Program-made: the position numbers and the translations under genes | Notes under the pieces: generated by a model | What the model was told of the DNA's origin: nothing | What the model saw: only the letters and a program-made list of their open reading frames with translations | Database searches by the model: none | Origin: an uncultured Alphaproteobacteria bacterium | Lineage (GTDB): Bacteria; Pseudomonadota; Alphaproteobacteria; Rhizobiales; Beijerinckiaceae | Reading direction: 5' to 3' | DNA: 64,000 bases | Assembly (NCBI GenBank): GCA_963820775.1 | Contig: CAWGBF010000013.1 | Coordinates: 168,258 to 232,257, forward strand | Shown here: positions 239 through 18,263 of the stretch, in pieces | How positions within the stretch are numbered: position 1 is the first letter of the stretch | Layout of the letters: each line of letters begins with the position of its first letter

Positions 239-3200
239 TCAGCCTCAAGAAATCTTCAATCCGGTCGTCGCCCGGCTCCGCGCCTTCTCCTGGCCTGACA
301 AAGACGTTGGTGGCCCCATAAAGCCCTTTTCCGAAACGGATGAGGAATTGCTCGTCTACATCTCAGAATGGGAGGACAACGAGCGAAAGGGCAAAAACGC
401 AAGGCAATATTGCCGCTTCCAGGGCGAACTGCAGCGCCGATACATCAAGCAGATTGCGGCCGCCATTCCTGAATGGGGAGCTTGGGGCGCTCGCACATGC
501 GTCCTCGACACAGAGACGCAGAACGTCGAAACGGGGCAGGCCATGCGCTTCGGCGTCGCCCAGATGCGAGGCTATAGCTACCATGAACTGATCGAATTCA
601 TGCAGCGTGAAAGCCGCCCACCTAATCGGGCCGAACTCGACACACTTCGCGAGGTCTACGTCTTCTACGACCCGAACATGATCGAAATCGATGCGGCCCT
701 CCGCGACGCCTCGCTTGCGCTATTGGAGACCGTGCGCAAGTCCCGTGAGGCCACGACGGGCATTCCTCACCATCTCGTCACGCGCGACCAATTTGTCGAG
801 GATATTCTGTTTCGCAATGAGCGGATCAAGGGCGCGGTCCCGATCCCTGTCCTAGTTTTGGGACACAAGCTCGACTTCGATCTTGAACGCCTGCCCGCAT
901 TCGGCGCCGGTATGGCAAAGGGTGATTTTTTCTACGGGGGATTTTCCCTCACCATGGGGCGAAGCGTCTTCAAGGGCGGCAAAAATAAAGGAAAGCCTAG
1001 CGGGCCGGTCATCCAACTCAAGAAGATAGGGCCTGGAAAAAACAATTACCGAGCGGTGAGCCGGTTCAACGCTCATCTTCATACGCATCAATTTGTCGAC
1101 ACGCTCATGCTCGCCAAGGCGCTGCTTGGGGCAGACACGCCAGGTAGCATGGATGCGCTCTGCGATCTGTTCAAGGGGCCATTGCCCAAAGAGGAAGTCG
1201 AGCACTTCAAGCCGCTCACCCGCGACTATGTGGAATACTGCCTAAACGATGTCGAACGGACATGGTTCATCTACACGCGGCTGCGCGAGCTTTACCAGCA
1301 GCATGGTCGGACAACGCCAATCTGGGGCTTGTACAGCGTCGCCTCGGTCGGAAAGGCCTATTACAAGGACTTCGGGATCGAGCCGTTCCTCCACAAAAAT
1401 ATGAAAGGCTCGGCGGCGAACAAGCTGAAGACCCTGAAGCTGTGTGGCGTGTCGATGGAAGCCATGATCGGCGCACGCGCGGAGTGCGGTATCCGTCATC
1501 AAATCCGCGAGGTCATCAACAAAGATTTCAAGTCCCAATATCCGACCATCAACATCAAGCTCGGCTTGCAGGACTTGCTGCTTGCAGAGCGCGTCGACAC
1601 TCATGAGGATGAATGCACAGCAAGCGGCGATTGGCTCAAGGGCGGCGAGGACGCCGCGTTCCTCGAAAGCGTCAGCATCCTCGATATGGATGATGGAGCA
1701 GGCGCTCCTTACATCTTCGGCGACCACGCATTGCTCGGCAAAGATAAGAGCCGGTCGGATAAGATGTGGCGACAATTGCTCGGCTTCGCGCTGATCGATC
1801 CGGCCGGAGCAATTCTTCCGCTGCGCACCGCCTTTCAAGACGCTGCCGACAATGATGACGGTAAAGCCTCGATCAATGTCGGTCTAACGGAAATAGAACA
1901 CGGCCCCGCTATATGGGTCACATATCTCGACGTTCTCGCCTCCAAGTTCCTGACCGGCAGGATGCCCCGACTTCTCAAGACCATGCGAATGGTCCCTGTC
2001 GGTCGCCAATCAAACCTGGAGAAAATCAGCTTCTTCGGCGACGCCGCCTATGAGATTGACTTGACGCAACCCGACGGCGACATATTCAAGCGCATCCTGG
2101 AAATGCGCGATGAGATCAAGGCGAAGATGAGTGATCTCGCCAAAGGAAGTCAGGAGTACAATCGGCTCAACGCCATGCAACTTGCGCTCAAGCTCATCGC
2201 CAACAGCACATCATACGGTGTCTTCGTGCAGGTCGATGTCGATGAGCGTGCAAAGCCGACAAAAATCTCAGTTCTTCATGGGACTGACGAGAGGAAAATC
2301 GTCGCCCGCCAAAGAACAAGAACTGATGACGGATCGCAGGAAGCATCCTCGATCAAGGTGGAGAAGCCGGGATCATGGTTTGCGCCGTGGGGGCCGTTGA
2401 TCACGGCAGGCGGGCGGATGTTGATAGCCATCGCAGAGACACTGGCGCGTCATGAGGGGCGAGCTTACGGCGGTATTCCCTATGGCATGTGCGACACGGA
2501 CAGCATGGCGTTCGTGCGCCCTGAGGCCATGCCTCGCGCCGAATTCCGCGCCGTCGTCGAACGCATCGGCCGCTATTTCCAGAGGATCAACCCTTACGCG
2601 TCAGTGAACGGCAAGGAGGTCGAAGTCTTTGCGACCGAGGACATCAACTTCGCGTTCACGAATGAGGGCGGCAAGTTCAAGATCGTCAAGCCGAAACAGA
2701 TGAAGCCGCTCTACATCCTGTCAATTTCCGCCAAGCGCTACGCCATAGCGAATATCGTCCGGCCGGACGGTTCGGACTATGACAGCCTCGAAGACCTTCA
2801 CGCAGACTGGCGCAACGCCGTCGTCATCCTGAGAAAGGTTTCCGCGCACGGCCTCGGTCCGATCACAGCGCCCGGCTATGCCTTGCCGCCCGACGACGGC
2901 GTTCATCTCGCCGTCCCGTTCAAGTACGGCGACGATGGCGAGCTTGTCTTGAAGGATGGCAAGCCAGTTCCCCTCTATAGCGAAGTATGCCACGGCAAGG
3001 GCAATGCCCGGCTTTTCCTCGACATGTGGAAGCGCGCATTTGAACTGTTTGTGCAACATGAAGGCCTGAAAACAGGCCGAGAGATTGCGCGCCTGATCGA
3101 AGTTGAAATGCACAAATGGCCAGGCCTCGATCAACCCCAGTTCAAGCAGCGATCCCTGAATACGTGGAGCCAGTTCAAGCAATATGGGAACCTGCGAAAT

Positions 3201-4661
3201 CGGCGGGCTGGAATGTTCTTCAACGTCCTTCCCGCGCCCCTTGACGCTGATTTTGGAATGGTCGGTCAATCGTTCGACATAGATCAATATTTCGGCAAGT
3301 CGCTTTATTGCCAAGGCGGCTCCGACATCAATGTCGTCAAACTGCTCGCTGAAGGCCAAGTATGGTGGCAGTCCGACAACGGGTCAGCCTCGAATTTCGT
3401 CGGCGAACATAAGCCCTATCGGCTGCAAACGGTCGCTGAAGCGATCGGCGATTATTTCGACCGGACGGAGTTCAAGGCAAAAGGGGAATACGGCAGGCTT
3501 GAACGCCACAGGGTAGCCGTCTCTCAGCGTGAATATGTGGGCAAGGAGACAAACTTCCTGCTGGACCCCGATCTGCCGGAGGATGATGAAACCCAGATTG
3601 AAGATGCTGCCGCCGCTCCATATTTTCGCTACGGTTTCAATCCGGTGTTGAGGGCTCAATATCTTGCCATTCCGGATATTGTCGAACTGCTTGATGTTGC
3701 GTCGCTCGATGCGCTCAAGGACATCCTGAACGGATATGCGCCATCCGATCATGCAAGGCGCGTCTTGGCGCATCTGCGCAAGGGAACGCGATACGATGAA
3801 CTAACAGGAACATGTGCGTTCGACAGCTTCATTCGTGAGGCCGATATAGCTGAGTGGCAGACGGCGCGTCTTGTCGACCTGGCGCGGCGTAGCTACCGCA
3901 AAATCAGCAAGGCTTGCGCCAACGTGAACCAGAAACCGCTTGTTGCGCTCGCTGCGCATTTCGGATTGCTTCCCAAACGCGATTATGATGCGTCACCCTT
4001 TGGTCAACACCATGATAGATTTGAAGAGAATTTAGCTCACGACCTGTTCAATCCGATGCTCTATCCCGACAAAGCAGCGGCCGTCATCAAGCTGGGTTTC
4101 GTGAGAGCGCGGTCGGGTCAGGAATTACGTGTGGACGAAGCCTTCGCCATGTTCGAAAGCTATCTCGGAATTGCGCAGCATAAAGAGCGCGCCGCAAAGT
4201 TCACGAAAAATCTCAATGTCGACCGCCGCGAACGGCGCGCTGCGCGGCGATTGCAGTCCAAGAAAATGTTGATGCAGGCAGTCTCCAAAATTCAGATGGC
4301 CACGCTAGACGATCATGTCCGGATGCTAAAGAAAATGTTTGTTGAAGATTACGGTTTTGATCCGGCCGACGTCGAGGAAAGCTCGCCGAATATCGTGAGA
4401 CTGGCGGTCTGTTGGCCGCTCGCTCATCCTGACTTTCAAATGCTGTTCCGCCGCCACACACAGACACGCCGGGCGCGACCCGAGATCAAACGCTTCGTAC
4501 ATGACTTGCTCGAACGTGCGACCGACCACGCTGAGCGCGTCAAGGCGCGAAAGCGCGTCCAGAAACGCCGCTCACGCATGAAACAGTCGCGCCAATTGAG
4601 AGACGGCAGCGTCCAAGTCGGCTTGGGAGATGGCGACGGCGTTAAGGAACTCGACGCTTAA
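231..4661 (+). CDS. polB: Family B DNA polymerase with 3'-5' exonuclease domain and long C-terminal extension (casposon-type)
   Basis: Exo I VLDTETQ, Exo II HKLDFDL, Exo III YCLNDV; pol motif A DFKSQYP, motif B KLIANSTSYG, motif C CDTDSM, and SAKRY. ATG 231 is preferred over the track's GTG 60 because it overlaps the HNH stop. Confidence 0.92.
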   Translation: MGSQPQEIFNPVVARLRAFSWPDKDVGGPIKPFSETDEELLVYISEWEDNERKGKNARQYCRFQGELQRRYIKQIAAAIPEWGAWGARTCVLDTETQNVETGQAMRFGVAQMRGYSYHELIEFMQRESRPPNRAELDTLREVYVFYDPNMIEIDAALRDASLALLETVRKSREATTGIPHHLVTRDQFVEDILFRNERIKGAVPIPVLVLGHKLDFDLERLPAFGAGMAKGDFFYGGFSLTMGRSVFKGGKNKGKPSGPVIQLKKIGPGKNNYRAVSRFNAHLHTHQFVDTLMLAKALLGADTPGSMDALCDLFKGPLPKEEVEHFKPLTRDYVEYCLNDVERTWFIYTRLRELYQQHGRTTPIWGLYSVASVGKAYYKDFGIEPFLHKNMKGSAANKLKTLKLCGVSMEAMIGARAECGIRHQIREVINKDFKSQYPTINIKLGLQDLLLAERVDTHEDECTASGDWLKGGEDAAFLESVSILDMDDGAGAPYIFGDHALLGKDKSRSDKMWRQLLGFALIDPAGAILPLRTAFQDAADNDDGKASINVGLTEIEHGPAIWVTYLDVLASKFLTGRMPRLLKTMRMVPVGRQSNLEKISFFGDAAYEIDLTQPDGDIFKRILEMRDEIKAKMSDLAKGSQEYNRLNAMQLALKLIANSTSYGVFVQVDVDERAKPTKISVLHGTDERKIVARQRTRTDDGSQEASSIKVEKPGSWFAPWGPLITAGGRMLIAIAETLARHEGRAYGGIPYGMCDTDSMAFVRPEAMPRAEFRAVVERIGRYFQRINPYASVNGKEVEVFATEDINFAFTNEGGKFKIVKPKQMKPLYILSISAKRYAIANIVRPDGSDYDSLEDLHADWRNAVVILRKVSAHGLGPITAPGYALPPDDGVHLAVPFKYGDDGELVLKDGKPVPLYSEVCHGKGNARLFLDMWKRAFELFVQHEGLKTGREIARLIEVEMHKWPGLDQPQFKQRSLNTWSQFKQYGNLRNRRAGMFFNVLPAPLDADFGMVGQSFDIDQYFGKSLYCQGGSDINVVKLLAEGQVWWQSDNGSASNFVGEHKPYRLQTVAEAIGDYFDRTEFKAKGEYGRLERHRVAVSQREYVGKETNFLLDPDLPEDDETQIEDAAAAPYFRYGFNPVLRAQYLAIPDIVELLDVASLDALKDILNGYAPSDHARRVLAHLRKGTRYDELTGTCAFDSFIREADIAEWQTARLVDLARRSYRKISKACANVNQKPLVALAAHFGLLPKRDYDASPFGQHHDRFEENLAHDLFNPMLYPDKAAAVIKLGFVRARSGQELRVDEAFAMFESYLGIAQHKERAAKFTKNLNVDRRERRAARRLQSKKMLMQAVSKIQMATLDDHVRMLKKMFVEDYGFDPADVEESSPNIVRLAVCWPLAHPDFQMLFRRHTQTRRARPEIKRFVHDLLERATDHAERVKARKRVQKRRSRMKQSRQLRDGSVQVGLGDGDGVKELDA

Positions 4662-15271: not shown

Positions 15272-16049
15272 TCATCCCGCCCGAGCAGCTGCAAGTTCGT
15301 TTCGCGCCACGGCGCGCAGCATCGTCTGATCGCTGGAGATGGTGCACAGCTGAAAGCCGAGCACCTGCATCGCGCGTGCGTCGGCGCCGTCGAAACAGAA
15401 CATTACCGCATATTTCCCGTGCGCCTTGGCTCGGTCGACAACCCGCCGCGCCTCGCTCATCACCGCCGCGCCACGCGGCTCGACGCCGGCTCCGTTGCTC
15501 AAGGCGATCGAAAGATCCGACGGGCCGACGTACACGCCATCCAAACCTTCGACGCTCAGAATGTCATCGACGCGTCCAGCGCGGCGCGAGTCTCGATCAT
15601 GGCGATCGCCTGGGTCATCCCGTTGCCGGCTTTGAGATATGCGGCAGCCTCCAGGCCGCTCAGCGGCAACGCGGCCCGCGGGCCCCAGGAGCGGTGCCCC
15701 AGGGGCGGGAATTTGACCGACTCGACCAGGCGCCGCGCATCGTCGCCGCTGTCGATCATCGGCGCGAGGATTCCGCAGGCGCCAGAGTCCATGAGCTGGC
15801 TCGCCAAGGCAAATGCGCCGACCGGCACGCGAGCGATCGTTGGTTTACCCGCAAGCGCCACGCGTAGGATCGAACGCGCCGCGCCATCGAAGTCGACGGC
15901 GCCGTGCTGCATATCGAGCACAACCGCGTCGAAAGCCTCGCGCGCCAAGATCTCAGCGACAGCCGGCTCATTCATGGTGACCCAAGCGCAAGGCCTGCCC
16001 GCCTGCAGCCTTGACAATCGGAGAGCTTACTCAGCACAGAGTCGTTCAT
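15272..16049 (-). pseudogene. HpcH/HpaI aldolase, two apparent -1 frameshifts (~16015 and ~15570); possibly sequencing errors
   Basis: FDAVVLDMQHG, MIETRAAL, DGVYVGPSDLS motifs split across frames; ATG 16049 preceded by GAGGAGAGGG RBS. Confidence 0.75.
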
Positions 16050-16284
16050 TCCCTCTCCTCGTGATCAAACCACGCCGCGCGCGTTAATCCGCCGCTAACC
16101 ACAAATCTCTGCTAACGCGCAAACGCCTTCATTACGCCGAGTTCATTTGAAATTCATCTCGGAAGCGGTCAGCTGTATAGACCAGATGTTCGCCTGAGAT
16201 AGGGCGACCCGTCTCACAATATGCAGGTTGACGAGGGTTGCGCTGGATGGACCAGCGCCGAGCCTCACGCATAGGAGACGGGTC

Positions 16285-17395
16285 ATGGAGCAGCGTATCA
16301 TCTACGTCGGCCTGGATGTGCACAAAGATACAATCGCGGTGGCGCTTGCCGAGGCGGGCAAGCGGGGGGGAGCTGCGCGAGTATGGCAAGATCGCGAACA
16401 CGCCGGCGGCGCTGAGGACTCTGGCGGCGAAGCTGGCGAGTCATGGCTGGCGCCTTCGATTTTGCTATGAGGCTGGCCCTTGCGGTTACGGCATTCAGCG
16501 CCAGCTGAGCGAAGCCGGGCACGAATGCGTCGTAGTCGCCCCGTCGTTGATTCCGCGCAAGCCCGGCGATCGGGTCAAAACCGACCGACGCGACGCGATT
16601 AACCTGGCCAAATTGCACCGAGCGGGTGAACTGTCGTCGGTGTGGGTTCCAGACCCAGCCCATGAGGCGATCCGCGATCTGGTGCGCGCGCGACTGGCGG
16701 CGGTGCGCGTGTTGCGGCAGGCGCGCCAGCAACTCTCCGACTTTCTGCTGCGCCATGGCCGTCATTATAACCGGCCGGCCTGGACCCTGATGCACCGGCG
16801 CTGGCTCGCCGGATTGTCGTTCGAACACGCAGCGCATTACATCGTGCTGGAAGATTGCATCGCGGCCGTCGAGGCGGCGACGGCTCGGCGGGATCATCTT
16901 GAAGCCCACATCGAAGCCGCGCTTCCGGACTGGTCGCTGACGCCAGTGGTGAAGGCGCTGCAAGCGCTGCGTGGCCTCGCGCTGGTGGCCGCTGCGACGC
17001 TGGTGGCGGAACTCGGCGACATCACCCGTTTCGCCAATCCGCGGCAGTTCATGGCCTATCTGGGTCTCGTTCCTTCCGAGCATTCCAGCGGAAGCACGCG
17101 ACGCCAGGGCGGAATCACCAAGGCGGGCAATGGCGCGGCGCGGCGCATGTTGATTGAGGCGGCATGGAGCTACCGGTTTCCAGCCCGTATCGGTCGCGAT
17201 CTCCTTCTGCGCCAAGAAAAGTTGAGCAAGCCAATCCGAGACATAGCCTGGAAGGCCCAGGAGCGACTTTGCCGTCGATATCGCAAGCTCGCCCATGCGG
17301 GGAAATTGAAGACCGTGATCACCGCCGCGATTGCGCGCGAGCTTTCGGGCTTCGTTTGGGCGATCGCGAAACAGACGCGACCGGAAATCGCGTAG
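16285..17395 (+). CDS. IS110 DEDD recombinase/transposase; one extra G in the G7 run at 16364-16370
   Basis: YVGLDVHKD, CYEAGPCG, KTDRRDA (DEDD), YLGLVPSEHSSG (Tnp serine). Removing one G joins MEQRIIYVG... to ELREYGKIAN. Confidence 0.9.
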
Positions 17396-17706
17396 GGCGT
17401 CGAAGCTGAAGCCGAGGGATTGCGAAGAGGAGGCCATCGACCACAACTCATCCAAAGTTAGGCAAGGCTGGAGGCACGGTCACGGCCAGGAGAACCCTCG
17501 TTTCCACTAACAGCCGGATTCTATCCGACGCTGATCCTAGACAGAGGAAGCTCCGCGACGCATTACCGGTCCGGCGGTAACCAACCCGCGTATCAGAGCA
17601 TGATCAACCGTCGTTCTCATGATCGTGCCTCTTGCCCTGCCTAACGGCGGTCGATTTGAAACGCTCGATCGCGAGCAAAAGAATATTCGCGCCTGCAGCT
17701 TGAAAC
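17396..17706 (+). ncRNA. Predicted bridge/seek RNA-encoding region of the IS110 element
   Basis: Long non-coding segment between the transposase stop and the right sub-terminal IR, where IS1111-group elements encode their guide RNA. RNA boundaries not determined. Confidence 0.4.
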
Positions 17707-17744
17707 GGCGAACATGAGAGTGGAGCGGGGAACAGGGATCCGTG

Positions 17745-18263
17745 ATGAAACGCACACTCGTGGCGGCGCTTGTCGCAGGTTCCATGTCAGCTCCTATCTT
17801 TGCGCTGGCCGCCGATGGCGATCAGCAGGCTTTACGCGCGGAGCGGATGCAGCAATGGGCAGCCGACCGCGAGACGATGCTGGACGCAAAGCTCGCGGGC
17901 ATGAAGGCTGGCCTTGGATTGACAGCCGACCAGGAGAAGCTCTGGGGCGCGTTCGAGTCCGCGGTCAAGGACGCCGACAAGTCGCGCATTGACGCCATGG
18001 GTCAGATGATGCGGATGCGCTCGCAGGGCGAGCGGATGTCGCCCATCGATCACCTTGAAGCCATGGCCGACCGCCTATCGCAGGGCGCCACGAACATTAA
18101 GAAAATCGCAGACGCCGCCAAGCCCCTATACGGCATCCTCGACGAGTCGCAGAAGCATAAGTTTAGCATGCTCGGGCGCATGCTGATGCCGGAGCGGTCC
18201 CGGTTCGCCATGGACATGATGCGCCATCACATGGGTGAACGCGATCGCAACGGCGCCGAGTAG
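17745..18263 (+). CDS. Spy/CpxP-family (LTXXQ) periplasmic protein
   Basis: Signal peptide MKRTLVAALVAG...; LKAGLGLTADQEKLW-like and LYGILDESQK motifs; Met-rich. Confidence 0.8.
   Translation: MKRTLVAALVAGSMSAPIFALAADGDQQALRAERMQQWAADRETMLDAKLAGMKAGLGLTADQEKLWGAFESAVKDADKSRIDAMGQMMRMRSQGERMSPIDHLEAMADRLSQGATNIKKIADAAKPLYGILDESQKHKFSMLGRMLMPERSRFAMDMMRHHMGERDRNGAE

Follow-up and report, generated by a model that had tools for sequence, protein, structure and literature searches.

A 64,000-nucleotide stretch of DNA (hereafter the window) from an uncultured Alphaproteobacteria bacterium of the Beijerinckiaceae (GenBank assembly GCA_963820775.1, contig CAWGBF010000013.1, positions 168,258 to 232,257) carries a 1.54-kb IS110-family element at positions 16179-17718, followed by a second AG dinucleotide at 17719-17720. 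Our comparative analysis supports its assignment as an insertion sequence (IS) of the IS1111 group within the IS110 family and as a new relative of ISSfr2. We also consider it highly likely, from conservation and covariation among relatives, that the long right end of the element encodes a bridge RNA or seekRNA that specifies both the insertion site and the element's own ends. The element is a clear example of a known RNA-guided kind and involves no new mechanism.

Eight copies define the boundaries of the element

A search of the host genome with the element region returned 8 copies with 99-100% identity and sharp common boundaries. In the alignment of these copies with their flanks, the left boundary consists of unrelated flanking sequence ending in (C)T, then AG followed by ACCAGATGTTCGCC, and the right boundary consists of GGCGAACATGAG followed by AG, after which the flank begins YGG. 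The AG core is found at both junctions in 7 of the 8 copies, the remaining one having CAG at the left, and at 63 of 68 sites of relatives, whose flanks are otherwise unrelated. No target-site duplication beyond this core of 2 nucleotides (nt) was seen in the host's own copies or at the relatives' sites.

In the window, where all element features described here lie on the plus strand, the left junction comprises the left target flank (LT, AGCTGTAT, 16171-16178), of which only the last T fits both the guide described below and the family consensus (C)CT, and the core AG (16179-16180). The terminal extension ACCAG (16181-16185) follows, which would form the right-donor half of a circle junction, and then the left sub-terminal inverted repeat ATGTTCGCC (16186-16194). 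At the other end, the right repeat GGCGAACAT (17707-17715) is followed by the extension GAG and the core AG (17716-17720) and by the right target flank (RT, TGGAGCGGGG, 17721-17730), the first 4 nt of which fit guide G1. The repeats are therefore 9 base pairs (bp) long and leave, besides the core, 5 nt outside them on the left and 3 nt on the right. We regard them as real because distant relatives change both arms jointly, as in the pairs ATGACCGT/ACGGTCAT, ATGGCCTT/AAGGCCAT and ATGTTTGCC/GGCAAACAT; arms altered together were seen in L102, IS-B, L112, L113 and L114. The non-coding ends are markedly unequal, with 325 nt on the right, counted from the stop codon of the recombinase gene tnp (17393-17395), and 106 nt on the left. 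An initial annotation of the window had proposed the same boundaries, the 9-bp sub-terminal repeats and a non-coding right end of about 320 nt, all of which agree with these alignments.

A conserved RNA structure is predicted in the right end

A scan of a genome collection yielded 80 related loci with recombinases 73-100% identical, and in most of them the non-coding right end was 75-90% identical to that of the window over about 270 nt. RNA alignments of 33 loci, and then of 40 including plasmid relatives and IS-B (a 54%-identical IS of the same genome), gave the same fold. Together with a covariance model built from the alignment, they predict a structured bridge RNA or seekRNA of about 190 nt at 17457-17645, with a basal stem of about 20 bp formed by 17457-17480 and 17622-17645 and two arms. 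In the target-binding arm (17489-17554), an internal loop is bounded by the stems GGAG/CUCC and CCUC/GAGG and has a central hairpin at 17511-17532. The putative donor-binding arm (17555-17614) forms a multi-loop that contains two small hairpins and is closed by the stem GCGACG/CGUCGU.

Across the 40 sequences, 98.3% of the cells were paired and 17 of 51 pairs showed compensatory change, a level reached by none of 500 shuffles, while sliding the partners by 1-3 columns left 3-7 such pairs. Most of this covariation sits in the basal stem; the helices of the second arm never vary, so that the comparison speaks neither for nor against them. Folded on its own, the window sequence gives a z score of -5.26. 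In the host genome the covariance model found exactly 8 plus 3 IS-borne copies and no orphan RNA copies, scoring about 227 bits on the sense strand versus about 35 bits on the antisense strand, and it matched 3 of 150 other genomes sampled across the class. An Rfam scan of 15900-18000 with E up to 10 gave no relevant family, only a chance CRISPR-repeat match inside tnp. Additionally, the right-end RNA region is tandemly duplicated in the relative L056 (about 2663-3227), with the two copies about 290 nt apart.

The target loop covaries with the insertion flanks

Two short patches of the first arm are hypervariable among relatives and track the insertion flanks. The right-target guide G1 (UUUCCACUA, 17501-17509) is complementary to the top strand of T-AG-TGGA(AA), and the left-target guide G2 (AUCCUAGACA, 17534-17543) has the same sense as CCT-AG-AC, which corresponds to LT, the core and the first bases of the left end. 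The G just 5' of G2 is absent in the window copy and in L006 and present in the other copies. The segment matching the top strand comes first (5'), the one matching the bottom strand second, and they overlap at the core, as in IS1111-type seekRNAs (Siddiquee et al. 2024, PMC11187229). The initial annotation had placed the guide anywhere within 17396-17706 and had asked for complementarity to the target and to the element tips; such complementarity is present and covaries across relatives, and the region is now narrowed to the RNA at 17457-17645 and within it to 17501-17509, 17534-17543, 17566-17571 and 17592-17598.

The covariation of the loop strands with the flanks extends over at least 7 naturally occurring target specificities. 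Independent right-flank specificities with a fitting guide are TGGA, TACA/TACC, AGTC, TGTC, ATGTTTC, CAGAAC, CTAG and TGCAC. Flanks beginning TACA, AGTC and TGTC go with the G1 sequences GUGUACUA, AGACUCUA and AGACACUA, respectively, and the flank CTAG of IS-B goes with CCUAGUUA; the reverse complement of G1 is ATGTTTCC for the flank ATGTTTCG in L098, CAGAACA for CAGAACC in L102 and TGCACA for TGCACTG in L113. Over 63 distinct sites, G1 showed 3.19 contiguous matches to the right flank versus 1.82 after shuffling (0 of 5000 shuffles), with the signal concentrated at right-flank positions 1-4. G2 tracks the left flank at position -2, its contiguous matches likewise being reached in 0 of 5000 shuffles, and L097 and L102 show exact matches of 8-10 nt. 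Where L114 has GGCC in place of ..CT in its left flank (GGCC-AG), its guide reads GGCCAG. The window's own site matches G1 over 7 nt and G2 over T-AG-AC only.

A conserved right end could also act as DNA, through recombinase-binding sites or a DNA hairpin used in end recognition, in which case the protein's own sequence preference would account for the short matches to the flanks. The inverted repeats and the adjacent TTGAA motif, DNA features kept in all relatives, would suit such a role. However, the helices are preserved through G-U intermediates and compensatory changes, the covariance model separates the sense from the antisense strand by the scores given above, and the guide segments, although 180-220 nt inside the element, change with the flanks; moreover, RNAs have been shown experimentally in relatives of the element's family (PMC11187229, PMC11208160). 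We therefore judge a purely DNA-level function extremely improbable and retain the guide RNA as the explanation.

The putative donor arm mirrors the right tip of the element

The tips of the element are nearly invariant within the close clade, so that mutual information between left-end variants (ACCAG, ACTAC, ACCAC) and RNA columns gave only clade signal. More divergent relatives were informative for the left-donor guide D2 (AUCAGAG, 17592-17598), which has the sense of the right tip AT-GAG-AG. In the window's clade, this 7-mer agrees with the right tip ATGAGAG at 6 of 7 positions, while the agreement is exact in L102 (AUGAGAG for ATGAGAG), in IS-B and L113 (AUAAGAG for ATAAGAG) and in L114 (AUAGGAG for ATAGGAG). 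The right-donor guide D1 (CCGGUC, 17566-17571) would pair with G-ACCAG at 5 of 6 positions, CUGGUC being the perfect complement. Its counterpart in L114, GUCAUC, is fully complementary (6 of 6) to GATGAC, whereas IS-B and L113 give only 3-nt complements, and for this reason we keep the partly supported D1 as a candidate and take D2 as supported by the comparison of sequences.

Two other segments were considered as donor guides and rejected. UCUCAUG (17615-17621), the reverse complement of CATGAGA, varies among relatives while the right tips are constant, and GAGCAUGAUC (17597-17606), which resembles the right-end sequence GAACATGAGA at 8 of 10 positions, shows no matching change in IS-B or L102.

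These donor matches bear on whether the RNA is a seekRNA that reads the target alone, with the protein recognising the ends through the sub-terminal inverted repeats and the second arm serving merely as a protein-binding scaffold. Such a division of labour would explain why the donor segments of the window's clade are imperfect, why D1 covariation is patchy and why left-end mutual information is only phylogenetic signal, and target matches are the only ones described for IS1111 seekRNAs (Siddiquee et al. 2024). It does not explain the second-arm 7-mer, which equals the right tip exactly in 4 divergent lineages with 3 tip sequences, or GUCAUC opposite GATGAC in L114, and the donor-binding nucleotides of IS1111 RNAs often lie in multi-loops (Durrant et al. 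2024), as the candidate ones do here. We thus find a target-only RNA unlikely and continue with an RNA that reads both target and donor.

A proposed route of transposition

By analogy with IS621 and ISEc11, the element would operate as follows. It encodes a recombinase of the DEDD/Ser type and, downstream, the RNA of about 190 nt with its long basal stem and two arms, which would be transcribed and bound by the recombinase. In the target arm, the 5' loop strand UUUCCACUA would pair with the top strand of T-AG-TGGA and the 3' loop strand AUCCUAGAC with the bottom strand of CCT-AG, continuing into the first bases of the element. In the donor arm, AUCAGAG would mirror the right tip ATGAG-AG, and CCGGUC would be nearly complementary to the left-tip sequence G-ACCAG. 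The complex would excise the element as a circle in which the right end (RE) is joined to the left end (LE) as RE-AG-LE, with a junction reading ..GAACATGAG-AG-ACCAGATG.., and would then pair this junction with an AG-bearing target, the strands being exchanged at AG without target duplication.

The circle might also create a promoter, as junction promoters are known for the element's family. An outward -35-like hexamer, TTGAAA (17700-17705), is conserved in position, reads TTGAC in distant relatives and may form half of such a promoter. Across the junction it stands 17 nt ahead of CAGATG, which is a weak -10, and a junction promoter is therefore plausible rather than demonstrated for this element.

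The recombinase gene is frameshifted in the window copy

The recombinase gene tnp (16285-17395) encodes 369 amino acids in its intact form; in the window copy, a +1 frameshift disrupts it. The window open reading frame matches PF01548 (E 5e-13) and PF02371 (E 5e-22), and the intact form scores 276 bits against NF033542, 'IS110 family RNA-guided transposase' (cut-off 140). The catalytic residues D11, E62, D100 and D103 align with those of ISCro4, and the C-terminal motif GLVPSEHSSG, with S268-G269, fits the pattern G--P----SG with its catalytic Ser. The PDB matches of the recombinase, ISCro4 and IS621, are weak (E about 1e-12).

In the window copy, the long open reading frame begins in the wrong frame, and the true N-terminus, MEQRIIYVGLDVHK... 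(ATG at 16285), lies in the other frame. The cause is a run of G at 16364-16370, which has 7 G in the window copy, 6 in 6 copies and 5 in 1 copy; the version with 6 G gives an uninterrupted open reading frame of 369 amino acids. As a result, D11 is out of frame with the rest of the window-copy protein. The DEDD and catalytic-Ser motifs noted earlier are thus indeed present, but the split of the DEDD set had gone unnoticed. The intact 369-amino-acid frame is found in 5 of the 8 copies, the frameshifted ones being the window copy, L004 and L008.

We rejected a programmed frameshift at the G run, as 6 of the 8 copies have 6 G and 5 of these give the intact frame, and a single uninterrupted frame is also found in L017, the closest relative, and in L097, the ISSfr2-family copy. 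The frameshift of the window copy may instead be a slippage mutation or a homopolymer sequencing error. The copy could accordingly be non-autonomous, or mis-sequenced, and mobile only with recombinase supplied by the 5 intact copies. L017 (DATNNS010000248.1), from a metagenome-assembled genome labelled Rhizomicrobium sp., carries a near-identical copy whose recombinase is 100% identical by tblastn and differs from that of L002 by one residue. Ahead of the gene, a 5' leader hairpin (16206-16284; -52.5 kcal/mol, z -3.84) in which GACCCGUCUC (16206-16215) pairs with GAGACGGGUC (16275-16284) is predicted to bury the ribosome-binding site directly ahead of the ATG.

The element probably belongs with ISSfr2 in the IS1111 group

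Among annotated relatives, the nearest is the 'IS110-like element ISSfr2 family transposase' of a Sinorhizobium plasmid, with about 73% DNA identity over the full element and 77% protein identity over 366 amino acids, and the recombinase is about 51% identical to those of ISEc45 and ISSso6. Supplementary Table 5 of Durrant et al. 2024 assigns ISSfr2, ISEc45, ISSso6 and ISCARN28 to the IS1111 group and predicts their bridge RNA to lie in the right end, the entry for ISSfr2 being 'RE / IS1111'. Two features define the group, namely sub-terminal repeats of 7-17 bp that have short extensions on their outer side, and a right end that exceeds the left in length; here the repeats are 9 bp long and the right end has 325 nt against 106 nt on the left. 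The IS1111-type assignment made in the initial annotation is in keeping with these repeats, the long right end and the similarity to ISSfr2.

The length of the recombinase raises the question of whether the element is instead a member of the IS110 group in the strict sense, from a sub-clade that has a downstream non-coding region. IS1111 transposases are quoted as 330-350 amino acids (Siddiquee et al. 2024, PMC11187229), and the 369 amino acids found here fall outside this range and inside the 345-385 amino acids of the ISEc21 cluster of the IS110 family; a downstream non-coding region also exists in some IS110-type elements. The 9-bp sub-terminal repeats with their compensatory variants, the motif GL-P----SG, the position of the top-strand match 5' of the bottom-strand match, and the listing of all the nearest named relatives (ISSfr2, ISEc45 and ISSso6) as IS1111 with an RNA in the right end nevertheless make membership of the IS110 group proper very unlikely, and we keep the element in IS1111.

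Several observations weigh against our interpretation of an IS1111-type element guided by its right-end RNA at both target and donor. Demonstrable covariation extends over a short target code, with about 2 nt from LT, the core itself and 4-7 nt from RT. The D2 of the window's clade carries a C in place of the expected G, a donor mismatch that is conserved, and D1 matches at only 5 of 6 positions with patchy covariation in relatives. The recombinase exceeds the length quoted for IS1111 transposases, the -10 partner in the proposed junction promoter is weak, and the G-run frameshift could be a homopolymer sequencing error and not a true defect.

Tips of IS630-family elements as the usual target

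Among the copies of the host genome, L003 and L004 face each other across 1.1 kb encoding an IS630-family transposase (NF033545, 245 bits; DDE_3 and helix-turn-helix domains). The two tips of this IS630 copy read TA/G TGGAKCGAAYCTAAC (the slash here and below marks a boundary), so that an IS1111-type element sits at both tips of one IS630 copy. The locus (L003:3044-4180; G000:C9:84781-85910) is a nested composite of three, consisting of the 1.1-kb IS630-family element and two inward-facing IS1111-type copies.

The same tip recurs outside the host genome. By a strict pattern it was found at 18 or more of 70 distinct sites of relatives from many genomes, with many others appearing to be variants, and it is also present at L097 and L112, while other relatives abut IS481- and IS5-family genes. 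A perfect unoccupied tip (..C-T-AG-TGGATGGAACC..) remains in the host genome. The preferred target of the lineage is a TA-flanked IS630-family tip (..CTA/G TGGA.CGAATCTAAC..). The site in the window, which lies upstream of a spy-like gene, fits it partially, with T-AG-TGGA only. IS630 elements habitually target CTAG/TA, and the preference for CT on the left fits this. The initial annotation had the flanks and AG core of the window copy right, and its place between the aldolase and spy genes, but had not noticed that the usual target of the family is an IS630 tip.

On balance, the evidence tips slightly towards a clade of ISSfr2-like elements that acts as a specialised, RNA-guided 'parasite of parasites', with a target loop tuned to TA-flanked IS630 tips (in sister lineages, to tips of other IS families) and naturally reprogrammed at least 7 times with a code of about 7-10 nt. 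The IS1111 bridge-RNA and seekRNA literature that we compared makes no mention of targeting of IS630 tips by IS1111-type elements. A related habit is known for IS4321 and IS5075, described as targeting the terminal repeats of Tn21-family transposons (Partridge & Hall 2003, as cited in PMC11208160). Like these, the window's clade consists of IS1111-type elements that habitually enter the terminal repeat of a different transposable element at a fixed position; unlike them, it uses IS630-family IS, and probably other IS families in sister lineages, and not Tn3-family transposons.

The host genome also harbours IS-B, a second IS1111-type element, in 3 copies (L010, L011 and L012; G000:C3:37336-38441, C6:41575-42680 and C8:621954-623059). 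Its recombinase is 54% identical, its ends read CT/AG/ACGTC-ATGTTCGCGG and CCGCGAACAT-AAG/AG/CTAG, and it shares the RNA architecture, but its guides read CTAG.

Comparison with known RNA-guided elements

The window element resembles ISSfr2 of Sinorhizobium fredii in its short left end, tnp and long right end, in the AG core and the ATGTTCGCC/GGCGAACAT repeats, and in the bridge RNA already predicted in the right end of ISSfr2. The ISSfr2-family copy L097, moreover, also lies against an IS630-like tip, with an RNA arm that matches the junction over 10 nt. The left extensions differ (ACCAG in the window, ACTAA in ISSfr2). ISfinder naming rests on an identity level at which copies count as the same IS, and the divergence from ISSfr2 goes beyond this usual level.

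With ISEc11, ISPa11, ISKpn4 and ISPst6, for which a seekRNA has been shown experimentally (PMC11187229), the window element shares a downstream non-coding region, essential in those elements, a top-strand match 5' of the bottom-strand match with overlap at the insertion point, sub-terminal repeats and natural reprogramming between relatives. The recombinases are only distantly related and the targets differ, and the predicted RNA, at about 190 nt, is closer in size to their 'long' forms (148-172 nt) than to the peak species of 82-96 nt.

IS621 and ISCro4, of the IS110 group (Durrant et al. 2024, Hiraizumi et al. 2024; PDB 8WT6, 9T56), also combine a DEDD RuvC-like domain with a Ser-bearing C-terminal domain. 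Their two-armed RNA, each arm of which reads both strands around a 2-nt core, has a predicted counterpart in the window element, one guide of which would continue into the partner DNA in the manner of a handshake guide. In contrast, the predicted RNA of the window element lies 3' of the gene and theirs lies 5', the guides come in the opposite order, the putative donor nucleotides are placed in a multi-loop and not in a simple internal loop, the sub-terminal repeats of the window element are long, and the proteins share little similarity (E about 1e-12).

RNA-guided recombinases of this class are under development for genome engineering, and the element provides a further, well-resolved natural example of them. 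Its clade offers at least 7 natural retargetings in which changes of the target guides and of the right tip (left donor) are matched between RNA and DNA, those of the left tip (right donor) partly so, and this set can be used to learn the programmable RNA positions of IS1111-type systems, which have received far less attention than IS621. The element also illustrates one IS family using the termini of another as safe landing pads.

The insertion site in the window

The window copy lies in the intergenic region between an HpcH/HpaI aldolase gene on the minus strand and an LTXXQ (Spy/CpxP-like) gene, with flanks and core that read TAT-AG-TGGAGCGGGG. The exact empty site was sought in 40 related genomes and not found; the same intergenic region is uninterrupted in 5 congeneric genomes, where the bases at the site have diverged, and the pre-insertion sequence is therefore inferred rather than observed.

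For genome annotation, these results flag 3 of the 8 copies as non-autonomous and account for a spy-like gene cut off from its native promoter region. A 1-nt deletion near 15545-15560 (..ALDA / VDDILSVEGLDGVYVGPSDL..) divides the aldolase gene (15272-16017) between two frames, a break that reflects either a pseudogene or an assembly error and lies at a site that is not homopolymeric. On the other side, the element ends 21 bp upstream of the spy-like gene (17742-18263) and separates it from its native upstream region. A sigma-70-like site in the right end (17656-17684; TTGAAA, 17 nt, AAGAAT) points outward to this gene and might now drive it.

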